From: Candidatus Saccharimonadota bacterium
Lineage (GTDB): Bacteria > Patescibacteriota > Saccharimonadia > Saccharimonadales > Saccharimonadaceae
Length of the DNA: 60,364 bases
Direction: 5' to 3'
Assembly: GCA_017964025.1 (NCBI GenBank)
Contig: JAGCST010000003.1
Span: 1-60,364 of the forward strand
Positions 5,406 to 56,619 of this stretch are shown piece after piece. The notes beneath the pieces are model-generated. The model was not told the origin of the DNA. It made no database searches and saw only the letters and a program-made list of their open reading frames with translations. The position numbers were made by a program, and so were the translations under genes. Within the stretch, counting starts at the first letter, position 1. Each line of letters starts with the position of its first letter.

Positions 5406-6430
5406 GACAATCATGGATTCTATTAGTAGCTTTATTTGGATTTATCGCAATTATTGGGATTGCTTTTTGGCAACAACGACAAAAAGCTCAACGTAAAATT
5501 TCTACTAAAAACGATTGCAAACCTTTAGCTAATACTAATAAAGTCAGAGCTTTACCAGAGTATAAAGCTGCCCTCAAAAAGTATCATCTCCTACTTATGG
5601 CTGCAGGCCTTTTGTTTATTGTAGTGTTTAGCTCTGTCGCAATTATTGCCGCACGACCAGTTTCGGTTACAGTTTCTAAACCAGAGTATGACAACCGTGA
5701 TATTATGCTCTGTCTTGATGTTAGCGGTTCGATGAATGAATATGTTAAGGAGCTTGTTGAATATTTCGCTGATCTCCTCGATGATTTTAAAGGTCAGCGT
5801 GTTGGCTTGACTCTATTTGATAGCGTTTATCTAACTGTTGCACCACTCAGTGATGACTATGATTTATTAGCAGATTTACTGAAAGACTTTAAAGACGACC
5901 CATTCGCTTATTCTTATGCTCTTTATAGCAGCAAAGTTGACGGTACATCAGCCATCGGGCGTGGCGTAGTCGGTTGTGTCAATGGTTTTGACAAATTAGA
6001 AGAGCAAGAACGTTCTCGTTCTATTATCCTAGCAACAGATAATGAGGATGCTGCCGGTAGAGTTGTTACTCTTACACAAGCCGCTAATTATGCTAAACGT
6101 TATAATATTGCCATCTATGGATTGTCCACCGGTGAATATCGTAGTCAAGAGCAAATAAATAACCCGACATCCACATACGGAGCAGATTATCTTGAAGAAT
6201 TCCGTGAAGCCACTCTAAATACTGGTGGTGCTTACTATGCTTTTTCTTCATGGAGTAACAATAATAACGTTGTCGTATCTGAAATCGTCGATCAGATCTT
6301 AGAACAAGAAGCTGCTCGCTATGAAGGGGCAGAAACACTAGTACGCAATGATTCACCTACTATTCCAATAATCATAGCAACAATATCTGCAATTTTATTC
6401 TTTATTGTAATCTGGAGGCTTAGTCTATGA
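5402..6430 (+). CDS. vWA domain membrane protein (BatA-like)
   Basis: MIDAS CLDVSGSM, GTSAIG, ILATDNE; N- and C-terminal TM helices. Confidence 0.9.
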   Translation: MRQSWILLVALFGFIAIIGIAFWQQRQKAQRKISTKNDCKPLANTNKVRALPEYKAALKKYHLLLMAAGLLFIVVFSSVAIIAARPVSVTVSKPEYDNRDIMLCLDVSGSMNEYVKELVEYFADLLDDFKGQRVGLTLFDSVYLTVAPLSDDYDLLADLLKDFKDDPFAYSYALYSSKVDGTSAIGRGVVGCVNGFDKLEEQERSRSIILATDNEDAAGRVVTLTQAANYAKRYNIAIYGLSTGEYRSQEQINNPTSTYGADYLEEFREATLNTGGAYYAFSSWSNNNNVVVSEIVDQILEQEAARYEGAETLVRNDSPTIPIIIATISAILFFIVIWRLSL

Positions 6431-28252: not shown

Positions 28253-28909
28253 CTAGAAAATAGCATCAAGTTCAGCGATTACTTCATCAATGAAGCCATA
28301 TTCTAAGGCATCTTTCGCTAACATATAAAACTCTTTACGATCTAATTTGTCGTATTCCTCCTCGCTCATTCTACTGTGTTCTAATACAAACGGTTTGACT
28401 ACTTCATCTTCTACTCGGTTTTCAAATTCAACTCTATCTTTGACCTTATTGGCAGTACCATACAGAAAAATCGAACCATCATGCATTAAGAATGAAGCCT
28501 TTGGCAATGAAAAACGTTTATGCCCAGCGATACCAATTAAAAAAGCCATTGAGCTCCACTGACCCATATTAACAGTGTAAATCGGGGTCTTGCTAAGCTC
28601 CATTGCCGAAATTAGTGCAAAGCCTTCTGTTACATCTCCACCTGGTGAATTGATATATAACCTAATTGGTTCACGTTCTGTTGGATCCATTCCTTCATCA
28701 ATACGATTGCAATTAATAATCTGCTCTACGATAAATGATGCGATTGATGCATCAGCATAAAAACTATCATCACTATCCAATGGCAAGATTTCTCCATAAA
28801 GATATACTCGTCTATCTTCTAGTTCCCTTGCTCTTCTGAAGTCCCAAATATCGCAATTAACGTTTGTATTTAATATGCTCGGAGCACTTTCTAAAGTATG
28901 CTTATTCAT
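28253..28909 (-). CDS. Divergent ClpP-family protease subunit
   Basis: IRLYINSPGGDV, SSMA (Ser), LMHDG (His), ALEYGFIDEV; own promoter TTGCAG-17-TATAAT and SD AGGAGG. Confidence 0.85.
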   Translation of the reverse strand: MNKHTLESAPSILNTNVNCDIWDFRRARELEDRRVYLYGEILPLDSDDSFYADASIASFIVEQIINCNRIDEGMDPTEREPIRLYINSPGGDVTEGFALISAMELSKTPIYTVNMGQWSSMAFLIGIAGHKRFSLPKASFLMHDGSIFLYGTANKVKDRVEFENRVEDEVVKPFVLEHSRMSEEEYDKLDRKEFYMLAKDALEYGFIDEVIAELDAIF

Positions 28910-29020
28910 CTCGCCCTCCTTTTAATGTACAACTCTAGGCAACTGTCTTAACTGATTATACTGAATGCGCTTTGCCTCTGCAAGCATAGCCATTAATGCT
29001 TATTTATTCGGCTAACCATC

Positions 29021-47302: not shown

Positions 47303-48085
47303 TTAATCTAAAAGGCCACTTTCACGAATGATATCACTTTTACCAGCAATAATTGACGTTTTTTCTGCACCAAAAGTTAATGGTTTTCCGTTTAGCTGAC
47401 AAACTTCACCACCAGCTTCAGCTACGATTAATGCTCCAGCCGCAAAATCCCACAATGAAATTCGTTCCTCAAAGAATAAACTAAATCTACCTGCTGCCAA
47501 ATAGCATAAATCTAGCGCTGCCGCACCCATTCGCCGTACATCCGAACATTTAGCGAAAATTTGTTTTAATTTCAGCATTGTATTATCAAACACTTCCGGA
47601 AAATATGGTGCTGTTCCAAATGCTACTAATGATTTTTCTAACGGTTTATCCGATACATGAATTGGTACACCATTTAAAAATGCTCCACCGTTCAATACTG
47701 CCTTAAACATTTCATCATGGTAAGGATCATAAACTACGCCAATAAATGGTTTTCGGTTTTTAAAACAAGCAATAGATACACAACTAAAATGCATTTCTTT
47801 AGTAAAATTAGTAGTACCATCAATTGGGTCAATTACAAATACATATTCATTATCTGGGAGGATATCCCCGGCCGTTTCTTCCGAGTAAAATCCTACTTCA
47901 GGAAATTGCTCTGATAAATATTGAACAATTCTATTTTGGTTTTGTAAATCTACCTGTGTTACTAAATCTCGATTAGAAGATTTTTCGTTGACTATCAAAT
48001 CGTCCGTATGGCGTCGAATCATTGCTTCACCACAAATATGCGCGATTTTTTCCATCTCGCTTAATTTTTTCTTTTCATCTAACAT
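47303..48085 (-). CDS. Inositol monophosphatase family protein (SuhB-like)
   Basis: DLVTQVD, IDPIDGTTNF, GAAALDLC, WDFAAGALIVAEAGG. Confidence 0.92.
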   Translation of the reverse strand: MLDEKKKLSEMEKIAHICGEAMIRRHTDDLIVNEKSSNRDLVTQVDLQNQNRIVQYLSEQFPEVGFYSEETAGDILPDNEYVFVIDPIDGTTNFTKEMHFSCVSIACFKNRKPFIGVVYDPYHDEMFKAVLNGGAFLNGVPIHVSDKPLEKSLVAFGTAPYFPEVFDNTMLKLKQIFAKCSDVRRMGAAALDLCYLAAGRFSLFFEERISLWDFAAGALIVAEAGGEVCQLNGKPLTFGAEKTSIIAGKSDIIRESGLLD

Positions 48086-48514: not shown

Positions 48515-48602
48515 TTGACAAACTATATATTTTGTGCTATAATAAAAAATATTCGAGAAGAACGTACTTTTACAGAGAAGAATCATAGAAGGGGGTGGTT
48601 TT
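48515..48602 (+). promoter_or_regulatory. Consensus promoter and conserved leader of an orphan gene
   Basis: TTGACA-17-TATAAT (TGn extended); leader 48564-48595 matches 55133-55102 at 26/32 positions. Confidence 0.8.
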
Positions 48603-48941
48603 ATGAATCAGACGCTCAACGGTTTTGTCCATGACTGGAACAAGACTCATAAATATCTGAATTTTTCGCTCAATGAAGCTCCTGTCACAGATCGTCCAAT
48701 CAACGTGGAAATTCGTTATCCAGCAGTAAAATATAAGGACGTTTTTTCCACCGAGACTTGGTATCAGTTAAATGATATCGTGGATGCTAAGTCTCATGGC
48801 ACTATGTTCATTGTGACCGACGAGCACCTCTTTGAGAAAGGTATCATTGAGGCGAAAATTGCTTCTCTAAATCATAACTACGAGGATCAGCGCATTGCTA
48901 GCGCTTTAACATGGATCGGCGAAGAGTTATTCTCTGAGTAG
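48603..48941 (+). CDS. Hypothetical protein (112 aa)
   Basis: Own promoter, G-rich SD and terminator. Confidence 0.8.
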   Translation: MNQTLNGFVHDWNKTHKYLNFSLNEAPVTDRPINVEIRYPAVKYKDVFSTETWYQLNDIVDAKSHGTMFIVTDEHLFEKGIIEAKIASLNHNYEDQRIASALTWIGEELFSE

Positions 48942-48963
48942 ACAAAACCATAAGAATCCTCAT

Positions 48964-48988
48964 AGCTCGCCATATTGGCGAGCTTTTT
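48964..48988 (+). terminator. Intrinsic terminator
   Basis: AGCTCGCCA-TAT-TGGCGAGCT-TTTT. Confidence 0.85.
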
Positions 48989-49027
48989 CATGTTATAATT
49001 ATAAGTAATAATTTTCGGAGGTGATTT

Positions 49028-50125
49028 ATGTCAAAATTTAATAATCCTAATACTTCTGACTACAAACGTTTAGAAAGAATATTAAATGCAATGATGCCTG
49101 ATCCTACAGAATTTGGCTATGTCTATCCAAAAGAAGAAATTTCAAGTGATAAAAAACAACTAGAGGCTTTTAAATATACACCAGAATACAAAAAAGGCCA
49201 AGAACGCTCCGATGCTAAACTTCTCGAAAAAACTTTTACCGATATGTTAGAAAGAGGCGATTGGTTTGGTGAATTTGATTTATATGGTGACGATGATGAT
49301 TTTTTTGCCCTAAAAACTTTTCCAACCGCCGAGATTGATGATGCATTTAATCACATTGATGTAATCTGCATGATTAACAATCCAATTACCAACCATGAAA
49401 CTTTACCTTTTGCAGTAGATTTAACCTATAACACAGACTCAGACAAAATGGCCCGAAAATTTAGATGGAAACATGTCTACGGCAAAAAAAAATCTGCTCC
49501 AGAAGGTGTCTCTGAGTTTGGCGAGAGCTACGTAACAAAGAATCATGACGGCGAAGAAGTTTTAAAAACACGACCATTACCGCTTAAATTCAGAAATGGA
49601 CTCAAAATTCCCGGCTTTGCCTCTGCCAAATATTTTGAAGATAAAGATGATATTTGGAATCCGGTACATGAAAAAGGTAGAATTCCAATTATGCCACGAT
49701 TTATCGTCGGATATTCCCCAGATATTGCAAGTGTACTCGCGAGTGGTATGCCAGACGAACAATTTAGGCAAAAATATGGCGAACAGGAATATCAAGCAAG
49801 ACGTCAAAGATTTCAGAGCGCCGAAAGAAGGGCGAAATGGTGTACCTTGCTGGAATGTTATGAACAAGCGTCTAACATTCGTTATATGCTAGAACATATG
49901 GATGAAGAAGAAACTAAATGGATGTCTCCAGAAGAACTCGAAGAGGCTAAAAAACAAATCATCATGATAGAAGAATACTTTACTAAAGCCATTAAACTTG
50001 CAACCGAAAAAGCTCAAACCGATCCCGATGAAATGTCTGCTATGCAATATGCTGACAGGGATGTTGTCCGACTTGCAATTATAGAACATAGCAGCAATAC
50101 GTATCTTGCAAAAGCATGGGAATAA
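49028..50125 (+). CDS. Hypothetical protein (365 aa)
   Basis: SD GGAGGTG; acidic motifs DDAFNHIDV and FAVDLT. Confidence 0.8.
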   Translation: MSKFNNPNTSDYKRLERILNAMMPDPTEFGYVYPKEEISSDKKQLEAFKYTPEYKKGQERSDAKLLEKTFTDMLERGDWFGEFDLYGDDDDFFALKTFPTAEIDDAFNHIDVICMINNPITNHETLPFAVDLTYNTDSDKMARKFRWKHVYGKKKSAPEGVSEFGESYVTKNHDGEEVLKTRPLPLKFRNGLKIPGFASAKYFEDKDDIWNPVHEKGRIPIMPRFIVGYSPDIASVLASGMPDEQFRQKYGEQEYQARRQRFQSAERRAKWCTLLECYEQASNIRYMLEHMDEEETKWMSPEELEEAKKQIIMIEEYFTKAIKLATEKAQTDPDEMSAMQYADRDVVRLAIIEHSSNTYLAKAWE

Positions 50126-50168
50126 AAAAACGCGCGTTCGCGCGAAGATTTTGAAAAAAGTCTGAATC

Positions 50169-50253
50169 TGGTGCCCGGAACAGGATTTGAACCTGCACAC
50201 CGAAAGGCATATGCTCCTAAGGCATACGTGTCTACCAATTCCACCATCCGGGC
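50169..50253 (-). tRNA. tRNA-Leu(TAG)
   Basis: Acceptor GCCCGGA/TCCGGGC-ACCA, anticodon loop CTTAGGA, long variable arm, TTCAAAT T-loop. Confidence 0.96.
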
Positions 50254-50297
50254 ACAGCATCTAAGATAGACTTATTCAATTATATCATAAAACCACC

Positions 50298-50324
50298 AAA
50301 AAGCGAGGTGAGGCCTCGCTTTTT
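50298..50324. terminator. Intrinsic terminator
   Basis: AAAAAGCGAGG-TGAGG-CCTCGCTTTTT. Confidence 0.8.
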
Positions 50325-50331
50325 AACTTAA

Positions 50332-50808
50332 TTAAGCTTCTCTTTTAGCTAAAACCGCTGAAGAAAGATACATCGTCAACATACCAAGAATCAATGCAAT
50401 TGGTATTACATCTTCTGGGCCAGTAGTTGGCATTGGTGAAGTGGTTGTCTCCGTTTTGCTTTCTGTCTTACTTTCGGTTTTACTGCTTTCAGTTTTGCTA
50501 GAATCGGTTGATAAAGTTCCTACAGTGTTTGAGTTACTATTAGATTGCTTGTTTTCGTCCGATTTAGATTTTTCGTCCGTATTAGTTTTGTTGTCAGAGC
50601 TAGTCTTCCCATTGGAATTAGCATTGGAATCAACTGTAGTTTGAGAAGTTTGTGTAGCCGTATTGTTATTAGAGCTAACTCTGGAACTCTTTTTAGTCGC
50701 AACTACGATAATAGCTACCACCAAAATCAAAATGATGATAACGGTAATTGTCGAAACCGCGATGATTTTACGACGTTCCTTCTTTTCTACATCTCCCTGA
50801 TAATACAT
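50332..50808 (-). CDS. Ser/Thr/Asn-rich membrane protein with LPXTG-like (MPTTG) motif
   Basis: N-terminal TM, low-complexity linker, MPTTG followed by TM and KREA; SD AAGGAG. Confidence 0.75.
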   Translation of the reverse strand: MYYQGDVEKKERRKIIAVSTITVIIILILVVAIIVVATKKSSRVSSNNNTATQTSQTTVDSNANSNGKTSSDNKTNTDEKSKSDENKQSNSNSNTVGTLSTDSSKTESSKTESKTESKTETTTSPMPTTGPEDVIPIALILGMLTMYLSSAVLAKREA

Positions 50809-50899
50809 ATAAAAAACTCCTTATTCTTTAATTATATCACACTTTATTGAAAAACGCAAGTATTTTTATATCATAAAATCAGCTAATATCAATTGGTAT

Positions 50900-51418
50900 T
50901 TATCTCTTGACATAAATAGAAATTGTGGCATTAGCATATTTACGCGTTTTTAATAGCTCTAATTTGGATAATTCTGCGGTATTTTGCGGATGAGACAAGA
51001 CTAATATGCCGCCTTGCTTTAAAAATTGTCCCAACTGCTCTATTTTCGATAAATCAAAATCATCATATGGTGGGTCCGCCAAAATTACATCAAATTTTAT
51101 AGATGTTGTAAAATTCACAACATCACCAGTGAAAATTTTTGCATCAATAGCTAATTTTTGTAAATTTTGACGGATAATTTGACAGGCTTTTTGACTTTTT
51201 TCAATAAACATCACTTGCTCTGCCCCTCTAGAAATTGCTTCAATTCCCAAGGCTCCCGATCCGGCAAAAGCATCCAGAACCAAAGCTCCCGGTAAAAAAT
51301 CCGCTATCATATTGAATAGTGCTAATTTTTCTCGTGCGCCCATCGGATGAGTTTTATTTCCAGGGGTAGAAAGCACCTGCCCCCGATATTTTCCAGATAT
51401 GACTTTTACTTCATTCAT
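50900..51418 (-). CDS. rsmD: 16S rRNA m2G966 methyltransferase
   Basis: VISGKYRG, LDAFAGSGALGIEAISRGA, DPPY. Confidence 0.9.
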   Translation of the reverse strand: MNEVKVISGKYRGQVLSTPGNKTHPMGAREKLALFNMIADFLPGALVLDAFAGSGALGIEAISRGAEQVMFIEKSQKACQIIRQNLQKLAIDAKIFTGDVVNFTTSIKFDVILADPPYDDFDLSKIEQLGQFLKQGGILVLSHPQNTAELSKLELLKTRKYANATISIYVKR

Positions 51419-51431
51419 ACAAAATTCCAAT

Positions 51432-53447
51432 TTAATTTAAGGTGGTAATTTGTTGATATTTCGAAATACCTGTCATCAACTCTTTATATTTTAACATATT
51501 TTCAGGATTTTTCAAGAAATCAACTGCATCCTTCTGGGCTTTGGCAATCAATTTTACATCCGATAATGAGGCAATTCGAAGGTCCAAAGCGCCGTGTTGT
51601 AAGGCTCCATAAATTTCACCAGGACCACGTAATTTTAGATCTACTTCCGCTAGATGAAAACCGTCCGACGATTTCTCAAGCTCTCTTAAACGTCTCGACG
51701 GTGGTATATCTCCAGAAGTTAACAAATAACAAAATGAAGCTACTGTTCCTCGTCCCACACGACCTCTCAATTGATGTAATTGCGCTAAACCATAAGCTTC
51801 GGCATTCTCGATAATCATTAGTGAGGCATTAGGCACGTCTACTCCCACCTCCACTACCGTAGTAGACACCAAAAGATCGATTTTACCAGCCGCAAATTTT
51901 TCCATTATGTTATCATTTTCCGCCGGTTTCATTCGCCCATGTAAAAAATTAATATTCATTTTAGGAAAATCACGCTTCAATTTAGCTAAACGTGATTTTA
52001 CAGAGGTAGTTTCTGCGCGCGAATCGCTATCAATTGCTTTGCAAATCCAATATATTTGCTGTCCAGATTTAAAAGTTTTATTAATCTCTGGATACAAACG
52101 TTCTTGTATTTCTACCTCTGTAAGTATAGAAGTAGTAATCGGCCGACGTCCCTTTGGTAGTTCATTTAATATCGATACTTCTAGATCACCAAATACCGTC
52201 AATTGCAAAGAACGTGGAATTGGGGTAGCAGTCATTGCCAAAAGATGTGGCGCCAATCCCTGAGGGGATTTTAAAGCTAATTTTTGTCTCTGTTCTACTC
52301 CGAAACGGTGTTGTTCATCGATTATTACTAAAGCCAAATCTTTAAATTCGGTATCATCTGTTAGTAATGCATGTGTACCGATTACGAAATCAATTTCACC
52401 ATCAGAAATTTGTCGTTTCAACTCAGCTTTATTTTTAGTCGCACCAGTTAATATAGCTATTTTTACCCCTAATGGCTCCAGAAGCCGCTTCAACCCTTCA
52501 TAATGCTGTGAAGCTAAAATCGCCGTTGGCGCTAATAGTGCCACTTGGTGTCCAGATAAAGTAACGCCATAAGCGGCCAGCGCTGCCACCATCGTCTTTC
52601 CCGAACCGACGTCCCCTTGCAAAAGCCGGTTCATCGGTATTTCACGTTCCATATCTTGAAAAATCTCCCACGCTGCTTTTCTTTGGGCTCCAGTTAAATT
52701 AAATGGGAGTTTAGCTACAAACTCTCGTATTTTTGCTAAATTAAAAGGTATAGCGACAGCTTTTAATTTTTCATTTTCACGACGATTAAGCCTAGCCGCC
52801 AAAATTAATTCAAATAGTTCTTCGTAGGCTAAATAATCGCGAGCCACAGCCACCGATTTTAGAGAATCTGGAAAATGAGCATTAAACAGTGCTTTTTTGC
52901 GCGTTCCCGGAGCTACCGAAGGTAACAAATCAGGGATAGAATTAAAAATATCACGAGAATTTTTCACCAAACGTCTAAAATCGCGTGACTTTAAAGCGCC
53001 ATGAGCTACATAAATAGGGCTAAGACCGGTTTCAGGATCAACATCGGCTACTTCCGCTACTGATGGTGAAACTAAGCTGTAACGTCCGTTTCGAAACTCA
53101 TAATTCCCTGTAAAAAAATACTCTTTATCTGGTGAAAATTGTTTTATTCGATATCTCTGGTTAAACCAGACTACTTTTATTGCTCCAGTTTCATCCCTAA
53201 TAATTCCTTCCGTCACCGACAAATTTCGACGTCTTGCCCGTCTAGTTGATAAAGAATCAATCTTTCCTCTAATCACAACTTTACCAGGATGTATTTCCTC
53301 TATAGAAGTCGGTGCCTCATAATTTTCATAATTTCTTGGCAAATTATAAAAAAAATCCCGCACGGTACGAATACCGTATTTTTTTAATATTTCCGCCGTC
53401 TTCGGCCCCACCCCCTTCAATTTTTCAACCGATGCGAAAAAATCCAT
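51432..53447 (-). CDS. recG: ATP-dependent DNA helicase RecG
   Basis: LLQGDVGSGKT, DEQHRFG, MTATPIPRSL, QLHQLRGRVGRG, DLKLRGPGE. Confidence 0.97.
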   Translation of the reverse strand: MDFFASVEKLKGVGPKTAEILKKYGIRTVRDFFYNLPRNYENYEAPTSIEEIHPGKVVIRGKIDSLSTRRARRRNLSVTEGIIRDETGAIKVVWFNQRYRIKQFSPDKEYFFTGNYEFRNGRYSLVSPSVAEVADVDPETGLSPIYVAHGALKSRDFRRLVKNSRDIFNSIPDLLPSVAPGTRKKALFNAHFPDSLKSVAVARDYLAYEELFELILAARLNRRENEKLKAVAIPFNLAKIREFVAKLPFNLTGAQRKAAWEIFQDMEREIPMNRLLQGDVGSGKTMVAALAAYGVTLSGHQVALLAPTAILASQHYEGLKRLLEPLGVKIAILTGATKNKAELKRQISDGEIDFVIGTHALLTDDTEFKDLALVIIDEQHRFGVEQRQKLALKSPQGLAPHLLAMTATPIPRSLQLTVFGDLEVSILNELPKGRRPITTSILTEVEIQERLYPEINKTFKSGQQIYWICKAIDSDSRAETTSVKSRLAKLKRDFPKMNINFLHGRMKPAENDNIMEKFAAGKIDLLVSTTVVEVGVDVPNASLMIIENAEAYGLAQLHQLRGRVGRGTVASFCYLLTSGDIPPSRRLRELEKSSDGFHLAEVDLKLRGPGEIYGALQHGALDLRIASLSDVKLIAKAQKDAVDFLKNPENMLKYKELMTGISKYQQITTLN

Positions 53448-53449
53448 AA

Positions 53450-53620
53450 CTATTGATGATTTAGAGGATTGCTAATATTGTCACTACCTAAATGCATGGC
53501 CTCATGAATCTTATCATGATCATGAATATCCTTATGAATTGTATCTGGATCCTTTGACAAATTTCTATGAATATCATTATGATCAACTATCCCAGATTTG
53601 TTTTTATCATCTCCTAACAT
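53450..53620 (-). CDS. His/Asp-rich 56-aa small protein (not in ORF track)
   Basis: SD AGGAGG, ATG at 53620; MLGDDKNKSGIVDHNDIHRNLSKDPDTIHKDIHDHDKIHEAMHLGSDNISNPLNHQ; stop 2 nt before the recG start. Confidence 0.75.
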   Translation of the reverse strand: MLGDDKNKSGIVDHNDIHRNLSKDPDTIHKDIHDHDKIHEAMHLGSDNISNPLNHQ

Positions 53621-53637
53621 TTTGCCTCCTTTATTAT

Positions 53638-54306
53638 TTACTCTATTATACCACTATGATCTTTGCGCCATTTAGCAATTTCACCGTGATTTCCAGACAA
53701 CAATACCTCTGGTACTTTCATCCCTCGAAAATCTTCCGCTCGCGTATATTGTGGGTATTCTAAATTATTTCCCTCAGAAAAAGACTCAATCTCGGCTGAT
53801 TTTTCTCCACCTAACACCCCAGGGATTAATCGCACTACAGAGTCAATTATAATTAGAGCTGGCAATTCCCCACCTGTTAATACGTATTTACCTAAGGAAA
53901 TTTTATAATCCACAATGCTAAGAATCCTTTCGTCATAACCTTCATAATGCGGACACAAAATAATATAATGAACCGTATCGTTAAAAGTCATATTCTCTAC
54001 CATTTCTCGTGCCATTTTTTGGTCCCAAATTTTACCTACTGGAGTCGGTAAAATCACCTTTGCCATAGAATCTTTAGCTTTTACTGATTCAATCGCTTCA
54101 AAAACTGGCTCACATCTCAGTAACATACCATCACCACCACCGTAAGGCGTATCATCCACAGACTTGTGTGGCCCTAATCCAAATTCTCTTAAATCTACAA
54201 AATCAAATTCCGCCAATCCTTTTTCAGTGGCTTTCCACATCATTGAAGTTTTGAGATACGGTTCAATTGCCTCCCGAAACAGCGTAATAATTGTAAATTT
54301 AATCAT
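53638..54306 (-). CDS. trmD: tRNA (guanine-N1)-methyltransferase
   Basis: VDDTPYGGGDGM, HYEGYDER, SLGKYVLTGGE, VPEVLLSGNH. Start moved to 54306. Confidence 0.96.
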   Translation of the reverse strand: MIKFTIITLFREAIEPYLKTSMMWKATEKGLAEFDFVDLREFGLGPHKSVDDTPYGGGDGMLLRCEPVFEAIESVKAKDSMAKVILPTPVGKIWDQKMAREMVENMTFNDTVHYIILCPHYEGYDERILSIVDYKISLGKYVLTGGELPALIIIDSVVRLIPGVLGGEKSAEIESFSEGNNLEYPQYTRAEDFRGMKVPEVLLSGNHGEIAKWRKDHSGIIE

Positions 54307-54322
54307 ACCTCTATTATACCAC

Positions 54323-54463
54323 AAAGAAAACCGGCCTTACGACCGGTTCCCCGCTGTTACGCGCCCACCCTTGGGGCACATTGTTTTGTTTTAATCCGCT
54401 GTTTGTTTTAATGAGTCTCCACACTCCACTTGTCAGTGGAACCCCTGTGAAGCGTACCAGCTT
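54323..54463 (-). ncRNA. About 140-nt structured RNA candidate (sRNA or attenuator) upstream of trmD
   Basis: Promoter TTGACA-17-TATTAT (54498-54470); nested stems; terminator AACCGGTC-GTAA-GGCCGGTT-TTCTTT. Confidence 0.55.
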
Positions 54464-54550
54464 ATATTTATAATAAAGCATAAGCGTTGGGCTGTCAAGC
54501 GATTTTGACCATAAAATTTGACAAAATTGCAAAAAATGACTTTTCCACAG

Positions 54551-54574
54551 AAAAGCCCTGGCTAATAGCCAGGG
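54551..54574 (-). terminator. Terminator of the orphan gene
   Basis: CCCTGGCT...AGCCAGGG-CTTTT. Confidence 0.8.
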
Positions 54575-54577
54575 ATT

Positions 54578-55096
54578 TCACATAACGTCTTCAGCGCAGT
54601 ATTCTGTAGGAACATAATGGTTTAGAGGTTCATCATATTTTAAATAACTGAAAAACTCCGCTGTGCAAGGGTGCAAATCATTTTTGACAAAGAAATATAA
54701 TTCACCATCATCAGTGTATAAACACATTTCGTCTCTATCTAGACGATTAATGCGATTAATTGAACCAGAACCAGGCTCACGATGGGACAATCTTTTTACC
54801 AAAACGACATGTGATGGCCGTTTTTTAGGTATGTCTCCGTTATGATGCCCATGGCATCCATATAGTTCACCGGTGAGAAAAAGTCTACCTCGGATTTCCA
54901 TTTCATTAATTGACGGATCATCCCAGATTTTATAAAAATCTCGTGCAGCCAAAGCCATATTATCGTATCCATCTTCCTTTAAGAAAAGTAAAACCCACTC
55001 ATGAAATTGCCATGTTGGATTGGCGTGTTTTATATTAGGAATTTTCCATCCAGGTCGAGAATGGTTACCTCCTCTACCATTTGTGATACTACTCAT
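54578..55096 (-). CDS. Hypothetical protein (172 aa)
   Basis: Own promoter TTGACT-17-TATAAT, SD AGGAGG and terminator. Confidence 0.75.
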   Translation of the reverse strand: MSSITNGRGGNHSRPGWKIPNIKHANPTWQFHEWVLLFLKEDGYDNMALAARDFYKIWDDPSINEMEIRGRLFLTGELYGCHGHHNGDIPKKRPSHVVLVKRLSHREPGSGSINRINRLDRDEMCLYTDDGELYFFVKNDLHPCTAEFFSYLKYDEPLNHYVPTEYCAEDVM

Positions 55097-55193
55097 TTAA
55101 CCCCCCTCCTTTTATACTACTCTGTAAAAATACTCACTTCCACAAGAGGAAGTGTAATACGTATATTATAGCACAAATTTTATGAAAAGTCAA
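55097..55193 (-). promoter_or_regulatory. Consensus promoter, hairpin and conserved leader of an orphan gene
   Basis: TTGACT-17-TATAAT; hairpin CACTTCC/GGAAGTG; GTATTTTTACAGAGTAGTATAAAAGGAGGGGG. Confidence 0.75.

Positions 55194-55224: not shown

Positions 55225-56619
<1,395 letters not shown>

Follow-up and report, generated by a model that had tools for sequence, protein, structure and literature searches.

The window analysed here is a contig of 60,364 nucleotides (nt; JAGCST010000003.1 of assembly GCA_017964025.1, contig C20 in our numbering) from a Candidatus Saccharimonadota bacterium, whose genome (G000) comprises 705 kb in 51 contigs, has 37.5% G+C and is 91% complete; DNA of the window was found in bovine, sheep and other animal gut metagenomes, and its genus may be Nanosyncoccus, a large one of the ruminant gut. 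Our subject is a short word, called the box below, in the mRNA leaders of two of its genes, gene A and gene B, which lie 6.5 kb apart among housekeeping-type genes and a tRNA and not within a prophage. Each is a stand-alone unit, as the initial annotation of this DNA had proposed, with a promoter and a terminator-like hairpin that could be located, and each carries a boxA-like word between promoter and Shine-Dalgarno (SD) sequence. A second clpP-like gene in the window carries the same word directly before its SD. Gene calls come from a custom script based on open reading frames (ORFs) and codon bias, a rough caller, so start sites carry some error; the names trmD, obg, recG, suhB, rpsJ and nrdR were recognised from sequence by eye, whereas clpP and the Pfam-typed genes are profile results. 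Transcription start sites were inferred from promoter sequence, not mapped. The features are as follows.

48515..48543, + strand: gene A promoter, TTGACA-17-TATAAT with TG extension, sigma-70-type; 12/12 match; kept in gene A orthologues
48564..48574, + strand: gene A box, boxA-like GTACTTTTACA; matrix score 10.1; core retained in the A family (see below)
48577..48588, + strand: 12-nt insertion between gene A box and SD, absent from 7/7 aligned orthologues
48589..48597, + strand: gene A SD, assigned from sequence; the anti-SD is intact in congener 16S
48603..48941, + strand: gene A ORF, 112 amino acids, genus-restricted, function unassigned, alpha/beta fold, model pLDDT 90.6
48964..48990, + strand: gene A terminator-like hairpin and T run, intrinsic type (hairpin itself 48964-48984)
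55165..55193, - strand: gene B promoter, TTGACT-17-TATAAT with TG extension
55135..55154, - strand: gene B hairpin, 7 bp, in a boxB-like position, ending 1 nt before the box
55123..55133, - strand: gene B box, boxA-like GTATTTTTACA, without C4; matrix score 7.0
55101..55111, - strand: gene B SD, assigned from sequence
54578..55096, - strand: gene B ORF, 172 amino acids, genus-restricted, function unassigned, model pLDDT 75.2
54550..54574, - strand: gene B terminator-like hairpin, intrinsic type (hairpin itself 54574-54556)
28920..28930, - strand: box of the clpP-like paralogue, GTACATTAAAA, abutting its SD; score 11.0; retained in the G011 orthologue
28253..28909, - strand: second clpP-like gene, stand-alone; Pfam CLP_protease, E 5e-29; promoter TTGCAG-17-TATAAT at 28983-28955

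The initial annotation had already noticed the hairpin ahead of the gene B box (55154-55135) and a partial version of the leader before the clpP-like gene, where we find the box core present. The gene B box is GTACTTTAA in the G011 orthologue and is unchanged in contigs of three related-strain runs, and in the G270 orthologue the 7-bp stem is retained with changed pairs (read by eye). The proteins A and B are indeed unrelated: BLASTP gave E 34 and profile-profile comparison a probability of 0.3%, and since neither comparison relates them, paralogy was rejected. Both are lineage-specific, as proposed, and form genus-restricted families rather than true orphans, with family A in 36/369 and family B in 52/369 genus genomes and neither found in the 24 other families searched; gene B has a paralogue on contig C37. 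Neither gene gave a significant Pfam match, a named homologue or a usable ESM Atlas match, and their predicted folds had no PDB match at E ≤ 0.001. Searches against Rfam returned tRNAs only in the window, and only tRNA and the start of 23S in 20 loci of the same genome.

The promoter type that A and B were said to share is real, but ordinary. It is a strong extended -10 type that is common in this genome, where TTTGTGCTATAAT occurs 10 times, TGTG(A/C)TATAAT 50 times and TTGAC-17-TANAAT at 47 sites. Leaderless-like genes are common, in line with what was first described for housekeeping genes (18/61 genes in the window and 205/672 in the genome, by the rough caller).

The leaders of A and B are identical at 26/32 ungapped positions counted from 48564 and 55133, as the initial annotation reported, and the match extends to 39 nt at 77%. 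This is the top value among 6786 pairs of SD-led upstream regions, at the end of a smooth tail (4 pairs at 25, 8 at 24, 17 at 23 and 65 at 22), and also among 1474 pairs of non-homologous motif-bearing leaders, where the next values are 25, 23 and 23. Some excess in the A/B match remains, because the next best of 54 leader pairs with similar, longer box-to-SD spacing reaches 21. The two SDs are in register, with equal box-to-SD length, because of the 12-nt insertion in the gene A leader; this was seen in this genome only, and in 7/7 aligned gene A orthologues box and SD stand close together. The insertion repeats GAGAAGAA from just upstream of the box and matches B at 8/12 positions, and local duplication and a one-off copy from B are both possible origins. 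Beyond these two the genome has no further copy of the 32-mer, the next best site reaching 22/32; the exact pattern occurs in 0/300 congeners, and leaders within the two families match the 32-mers at 12–21/32, except for the closest gene B orthologue at 25. The longer match is a one-off, and the 32-mer is not a module.

These results bear directly on an alternative raised in the initial annotation, a mechanism that inserts genes along with a standard expression module; it would be integron- or retron-like, and the module would be a promoter-leader unit of 32 nt. Several features would suit such capture: each unit is self-contained, A-family genes adjoin several different core genes, the gene A slot is occupied by other genes in G011, and one tyrosine recombinase, untyped, is present. 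Against it stand the absence of a third 32-mer, the low match of orthologue leaders, an A/B register that rests on the insertion in A, the presence of B-family genes at trmD-obg in 6 genomes, and the fact that neither flanking repeats nor a reverse transcriptase were found. The idea was rejected, no copied module or flanking repeats having been found and the leaders being non-homologous, with box and SD in common and nothing else, and we consider it barely credible. Integron cassettes are dispersed, unrelated genes, often of unknown function; the units described here differ from them in that no shared terminal repeat or copied module was found, in carrying their own promoters and in the lack of homology between leaders. 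Phage morons, single lineage-specific genes with their own strong sigma-70 promoter, SD and intrinsic terminator between conserved genes, are similar in promoter and terminator, but A and B are not in a prophage and a shared leader word lies outside the definition of a moron. Most of the gene A region had no contig cover in two strain-level runs, which was not counted as an empty site, and there is no clean empty site for gene B, where obg is inverted relative to G083 and G039.

A blind de novo motif search in 53 SD-led leaders of this genome returned nG(T/C)AC(A/T/C)TT(A/T)A, with a log-likelihood of 75.9 as against 25.7–28.3 in six shuffles. The core element is G(T/C)AC(A/C/T)TT(A/T)A, 9–11 nt and not 32 nt, of which GUACAUUAA is a representative. 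A box was called at a matrix score of at least 8 unless stated otherwise, and the matrix was applied unchanged to held-out genomes. In its own genome it finds the box in 17/53 SD-led leaders; a looser definition of leaders gives 27 box genes, some chance matches included, and about 17–25 stand-alone non-core genes of this genome carry the box. The suggestion of a control element shared by dispersed genes is thus upheld for the 9–11-nt box and not for the 32 nt.

The scan of relatives likewise failed to recover the 32-mer and recovered the core. In parts of three held-out congeners (514, 354 and 334 kb of genomes of 700–800 kb) the box was present in 9/46, 6/30 and 8/22 leaders, with shuffle means of 0.8, 0.5 and 0.3. 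Pooled, this is 23/98 leaders, whereas column-permuted matrices gave a mean of 1.7 and a maximum of 12. The reverse complement was found in none of the three, and in 1/151 genus leaders as against 40/151 in the sense orientation. Leaders of the complete outgroup-family genome, G039, had no box (0/21). The pattern of box plus SD gives 297 matches in 88/101 genus genomes, compared with 60 matches in 42/101 for a scrambled core. Outside the genus there is at most one match per genome, in 35/248 genomes (34/247 without the unpublished G538, which enters no other result). The box word is order-wide, but among the genera sampled only this one uses it at multiple genes, since no genome outside has more than one match. 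Among 20 of the single outside sites that were fetched, seven from three families belong to the nrdR leader (L179, L180, L182, L183, L185, L186, L187), where the box stands after apparent NrdR boxes and before the SD.

The genes that carry the box are almost all lineage-specific. No homologue in the complete outgroup genome was found for 39/40 box genes, compared with 66/111 genes with SD-led leaders that lack the box (Fisher p 1.5e-6, a value inflated by kin and orthologues; 34 of the 40 box genes are non-homologous), and in the held-out subset the figures are 23/23 and 40/75. The second clpP is the sole box gene with an outgroup homologue, and on core SD-led genes the box is rare (1/46). A terminator of their own follows 38/40 box genes, 44/66 other non-core genes and 19/45 core genes; after removal of homologues it is 33/34 box genes, as against 0–6 when shuffled. 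Among the box proteins, in a set that includes genes scoring 7–8, 12/41 have a Pfam family, of 11 unrelated kinds, and 29/41 have none; the families are ClpP, nucleotidyltransferase, nucleosidase, PIN-PhoH, HD, GGDEF, small RelA/SpoT, cell-wall hydrolase, amidohydrolase, DegV, MYG1 and helix-turn-helix (HTH), the last encoded by a single gene in G011. Because the box genes are functionally so mixed, a ‘regulon’ in the sense of one stimulus is doubtful.

Genome-wide, a terminator lies within 12 nt of the stop codon in 35–39% of genes in the genus genomes G000, G083, G103 and G011 and in 12% in the outgroup G039. Terminators close to stop codons are regarded as a sign of uncoupled, ‘runaway’ transcription.

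Within gene families the box persists. In family A, 26/30 leaders keep G(T/C)AC(A/C/T)T where 1 is expected, in 14 different 9-mers, and the core survives at 27–58% protein identity as the rest of the leader turns over. In family B, 17/29 scorable loci, many of them near-identical, score at least 7 where 1.5 are expected. Judged by this retention, the box is under selection. It was also found, with promoter and SD, before a dihydroorotase of G083, a lone gene of Lachnospiraceae type (55–59% identity), whereas among 57 homologues of donor type, drawn from the top 62 of 80 loci, just one has the box; for the single gene tested, this suggests that the box was gained after the gene arrived.

The box could conceivably be a neutral relic, brought along from donors such as gut Clostridia or phages, or copied between leaders, and functionless here. 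That box genes are non-core, that the G083 dihydroorotase is of Lachnospiraceae type and that A and B, only 6.5 kb apart, share 39 nt at 77% would all fit such an origin. Its conservation among orthologues largely refutes this, the dihydroorotase homologues of donor type (one gene) run counter to it, and the exact box-SD 16-mer, though present in 43 different viral contigs, is never found more than once in any of them. We regard a relic as very improbable.

The box ends 0–8 nt before the SD in 28/40 leaders and at most 3 nt before it in 19/40, with a modal distance of 2 nt; overall it lies 9–100 nt from the -10 element and 0–54 nt from the SD, some sites being 25–54 nt away. It is also easier to open than other leader segments (2.6 vs 4.3 kcal/mol, p 0.001, without composition control). 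Holding the box open lowered the cost of opening the ribosome-binding site (3.7 vs 4.4 kcal/mol, p 0.018), a result that is confounded by adjacency and was not counted.

Such a placement would suit the main rival to a Nus-factor site, namely a translation-initiation element read apart from Nus factors, either an enhancer recognised by S1 or the 30S subunit or a site for another RNA-binding protein, which, in a cell with many leaderless core mRNAs, would increase the translation of accessory mRNAs that have a leader. Its closeness to the SD, its restriction to the sense strand, its easier opening and the presence of a four-domain S1 gene are all in keeping with this, strong promoters and SDs fit an enhancer better than a repressor, and the genus rRNA leaders lack the full word. 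An enhancer sits less well with the rarity of the box on core SD-led genes that need high expression, with the sites 25–54 nt from the SD, and with the near absence of the box before operon-internal SDs (2/302, about 2.3 expected), though coding constraint could account for the last. None of five 16S sequences has a conserved exact complement of the box, and a fixed G1 and C4 are not expected for S1. Overall we think this reading rather unlikely.

A DNA-level role is less probable still. The box could be the operator of one transcription factor, or a -10-like sigma-dependent pause site, as TACNTT fits TANNNT. It always follows a sigma-70-type promoter, its GTAC variants contain TANNNT, and one G011 box gene encodes an HTH protein. 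In one B-like subfamily (L379, L380, L382-L386, L388, L389) a perfect inverted repeat of 11 bp, like an rRNA leader-trailer helix, has the box as one arm and its second arm just before the SD. Yet the box is strictly oriented and has no dyad, and the distance to the -10 varies as the box clusters at the SD. The T of a -10 is lost in the GCAC and GAAC variants (12/40), whereas the fixed positions G1, C4 and A9 are ones that sigma does not read. With box genes functionally mixed as well, an operator or pause site seems improbable.

We next compared the box with boxA, whose consensus is GYTCTTTAANA (PMC5725501, whose site list covers gamma-proteobacteria only). The resemblance seen in the initial annotation is borne out at the mRNA sites, 26/40 of which match at least 8/10 consensus positions, one perfectly, and in one pair of paralogues the box is GTTCTTTAAAA in one member and GAACCTTAAAA in the other; the word in the genus's own rRNA leaders has decayed. 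NusB contacts boxA at G2, C5 and U8 in the Aquifex structure (PMC3177189), and the equivalents G1, C4 and T7 are present in 40, 39 and 40 of the 40 boxes, partly set by the score cut-off. In 6/7 other families 16S leaders have both G1 and C4, in the form G..C.TT(A/G)A, for example GAACTTTAAAA and GAACGTTAAAA; these sites were picked by eye, and loci without a 5' leader and three contaminant-looking loci (L026, L134, L135) were left out. A hairpin ends 0–4 nt before the 16S box in 12/14 leaders, and one lies just before the mRNA box in 11/26 non-homologous leaders, compared with 21–22% at control positions (p 0.011–0.015).

The same order of elements is known from rrn leaders. In B. subtilis, AUGAUCUUUGAAA follows a hairpin and the box binds NusB (PMC13753749), and boxB-boxA with its NusB-S10-NusA-NusG complex is described for E. 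coli and Aquifex (PMC3177189). Here too a promoter precedes the box, with a small hairpin between them in some leaders, other families of the order have nearly the same word at 16S, and NusB is kept; what differs is that the box belongs to short mRNAs, each closed by an intrinsic terminator of its own, and that the rRNA of the genus has lost the 5' half of the word. A known mRNA case is the 5' untranslated region of E. coli suhB, where a boxA 6 nt from the SD mediates translational repression by the Nus complex that ends in Rho-dependent termination (PMC5725501). Shared with it are a box a few nt before an mRNA SD, the sense strand, and retention of G1, C4 and T6-T7. Unlike the suhB-type sites, of which there are 0–7 per genome, mostly on Nus or translation genes (PMC5725501), the boxes number about 17–25 per genome on unrelated non-core genes, depart from GYTCTTTAANA at positions 3 and 5, and occur where Rho was not found. 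None scoring at least 8 lies before rpsJ (5.3), rpmF-nusB or the neighbouring suhB-like gene, the autoregulatory targets seen elsewhere.

The expected partners are largely present: nusB in 66/66 high-quality genus genomes, nusG in this genome, nusA in 5/5 relatives and rpsJ, recognised by eye, on contig C37. Helix 7 of NusB is intact (L013:1354-1914, contig C50 of G000), with Asn at the position of E. coli D118, as in Thermotoga NusB; D118N is a higher-affinity variant (PMC3177189). Weighing these likenesses, we judge that on balance the box probably works as a boxA site binding NusB-S10.

Several observations weigh against that judgement, beginning with the empty autoregulatory targets just named. 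Position 3 is A in 38/40 boxes and position 5 in 19/40, unlike known boxA, and gene B's own box lacks C4. The 16S and 23S leaders of the genus keep just the 3' half, TTAACAATTT, which also pairs with the trailer; 0/7 genus 16S leaders have both G1 and C4, the 16S and 23S sites of this genome score 4.2 and 0.2, and congener 23S leaders are likewise weak. Because G1 and C4 do not occur together there, the proof that the same word stands at the organism's own rRNA fails. Rho domains were found in 0/61 genus genomes, so the classical purpose of boxA is missing, and a search of this genome, 91% complete, did not find nusA. Hairpins are in modest excess, and control leaders, too, fold better than shuffled versions of themselves. 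About 12/29 B-family loci lack the box; in seven near-identical B-like loci (L368-L374) the start was probably chosen one ATG too far downstream, and three others (L367, L375, L381), taken with the upstream start, also lack it. Sense matches in coding sequence are fewer than expected (28/37, 29/44, 17/22 and 15/19 observed/expected in the genus), but so they are in the outgroup (39/43), and antisense matches are also low in two genomes. Finally, the distance from stop codon to terminator, predicted to be shorter for box genes, does not differ from that of other genes (p 0.13). With the rRNA word decayed, Rho not found and the autoregulated genes without a box, we do not file it as a member of the boxA class.

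A separate feature of the genus is that the rRNA genes for 16S and 23S are not linked and each have a promoter of their own, and that a terminator-like hairpin follows 16S (L019-L023, L137-L145; C14:10687 and C6:5113 of G000).

How might a boxA-like site act on such mRNAs? A protein that sits 8 nt or less from the SD would occupy part of the 30S footprint. We tentatively propose, by analogy with suhB, that binding of NusB-S10 gates translation of accessory mRNAs, A and B being two of about 17–25 genes with a boxA-like word before a strong SD. NusB-S10 would load onto the box as the leader emerges, with NusG and NusA following onto the new mRNA, and, once bound, the complex would bar the 30S subunit for as long as the short gene is being transcribed by RNA polymerase; such exclusion is proposed because the box ends 0–8 nt from the SD in 28/40 leaders. 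As Rho was not found, no premature termination is expected. Translation of these genes, which have strong promoters, would be delayed and damped until the complex left at the terminator, and their output would be tied to free S10 and NusB. Repressing the genes with the strongest promoters and SDs looks wasteful, which speaks against gating. An alternative output of a Nus-bound box, faster and pause-resistant elongation with no translational effect, we think unlikely.

The established role of NusB, apart from a few cases on mRNA, is the blocking of Rho on rRNA operons. More speculatively than the gating itself, the Nus complex may have moved from rRNA to mRNA in this genus, with rRNA boxA decayed, Rho gone and NusB-S10 serving a second expression class. 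Once in the genome, newly gained genes would then evolve promoter, hairpin, boxA, strong SD and terminator, and a Nus-loaded polymerase would express them apart from the leaderless and operon-borne core genes.

Several neighbours of A and B deserve mention. Two genes from A lies a suhB-like inositol monophosphatase (47303-48085, - strand), missing from the same slot in G011 and with 11 substitutions in one strain run. About half of the A-family loci pair gene A with a 365-amino-acid gene of unassigned function (49028-50125, + strand), which has its own -10 and SD and no box. Directly after gene B comes an ORF-free transcription unit (54325-54498, - strand; promoter TTGACA-17-TATTAT, own terminator) for an RNA of about 115 nt with a closing stem and an A-rich loop (folding z -4.1), which is 88–94% identical in 7 congeners and has no Rfam family. 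Within obg, a stretch that contains short inverted repeats (56255-56350, + strand) resembles an inserted repeat element; several runs show raised contig depth and indels there. Elsewhere in the genome, contig C51 holds a further ORF-free unit of about 370 nt (L170, about 5700-6061, - strand) with a perfect promoter and a terminator and no Rfam match at the gathering score.

We found no description of such a class of boxes in the literature on boxA, Nus factors, Rho-less termination and Saccharibacteria or Patescibacteria leaders, a survey that took in few subscription papers. What is new here is the held-out validation across the genus, the conservation among orthologues, the failure to find Rho, the decay of the box at the genus's own rRNA and a single apparent gain following gene transfer. 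The role of the Nus complex in bacteria that lack Rho or can dispense with it has been raised as a question for B. subtilis (PMC13753749), and with hundreds of natural boxA-like mRNA sites and no Rho found, this genus makes it directly testable. Were the box a translation enhancer, it would still be an undescribed cis-element, if a more ordinary one. The box also marks out genes that are acquired or lineage-specific in a large gut lineage that is uncultured, and it may reveal how expression signals are fitted to foreign genes in a reduced genome.

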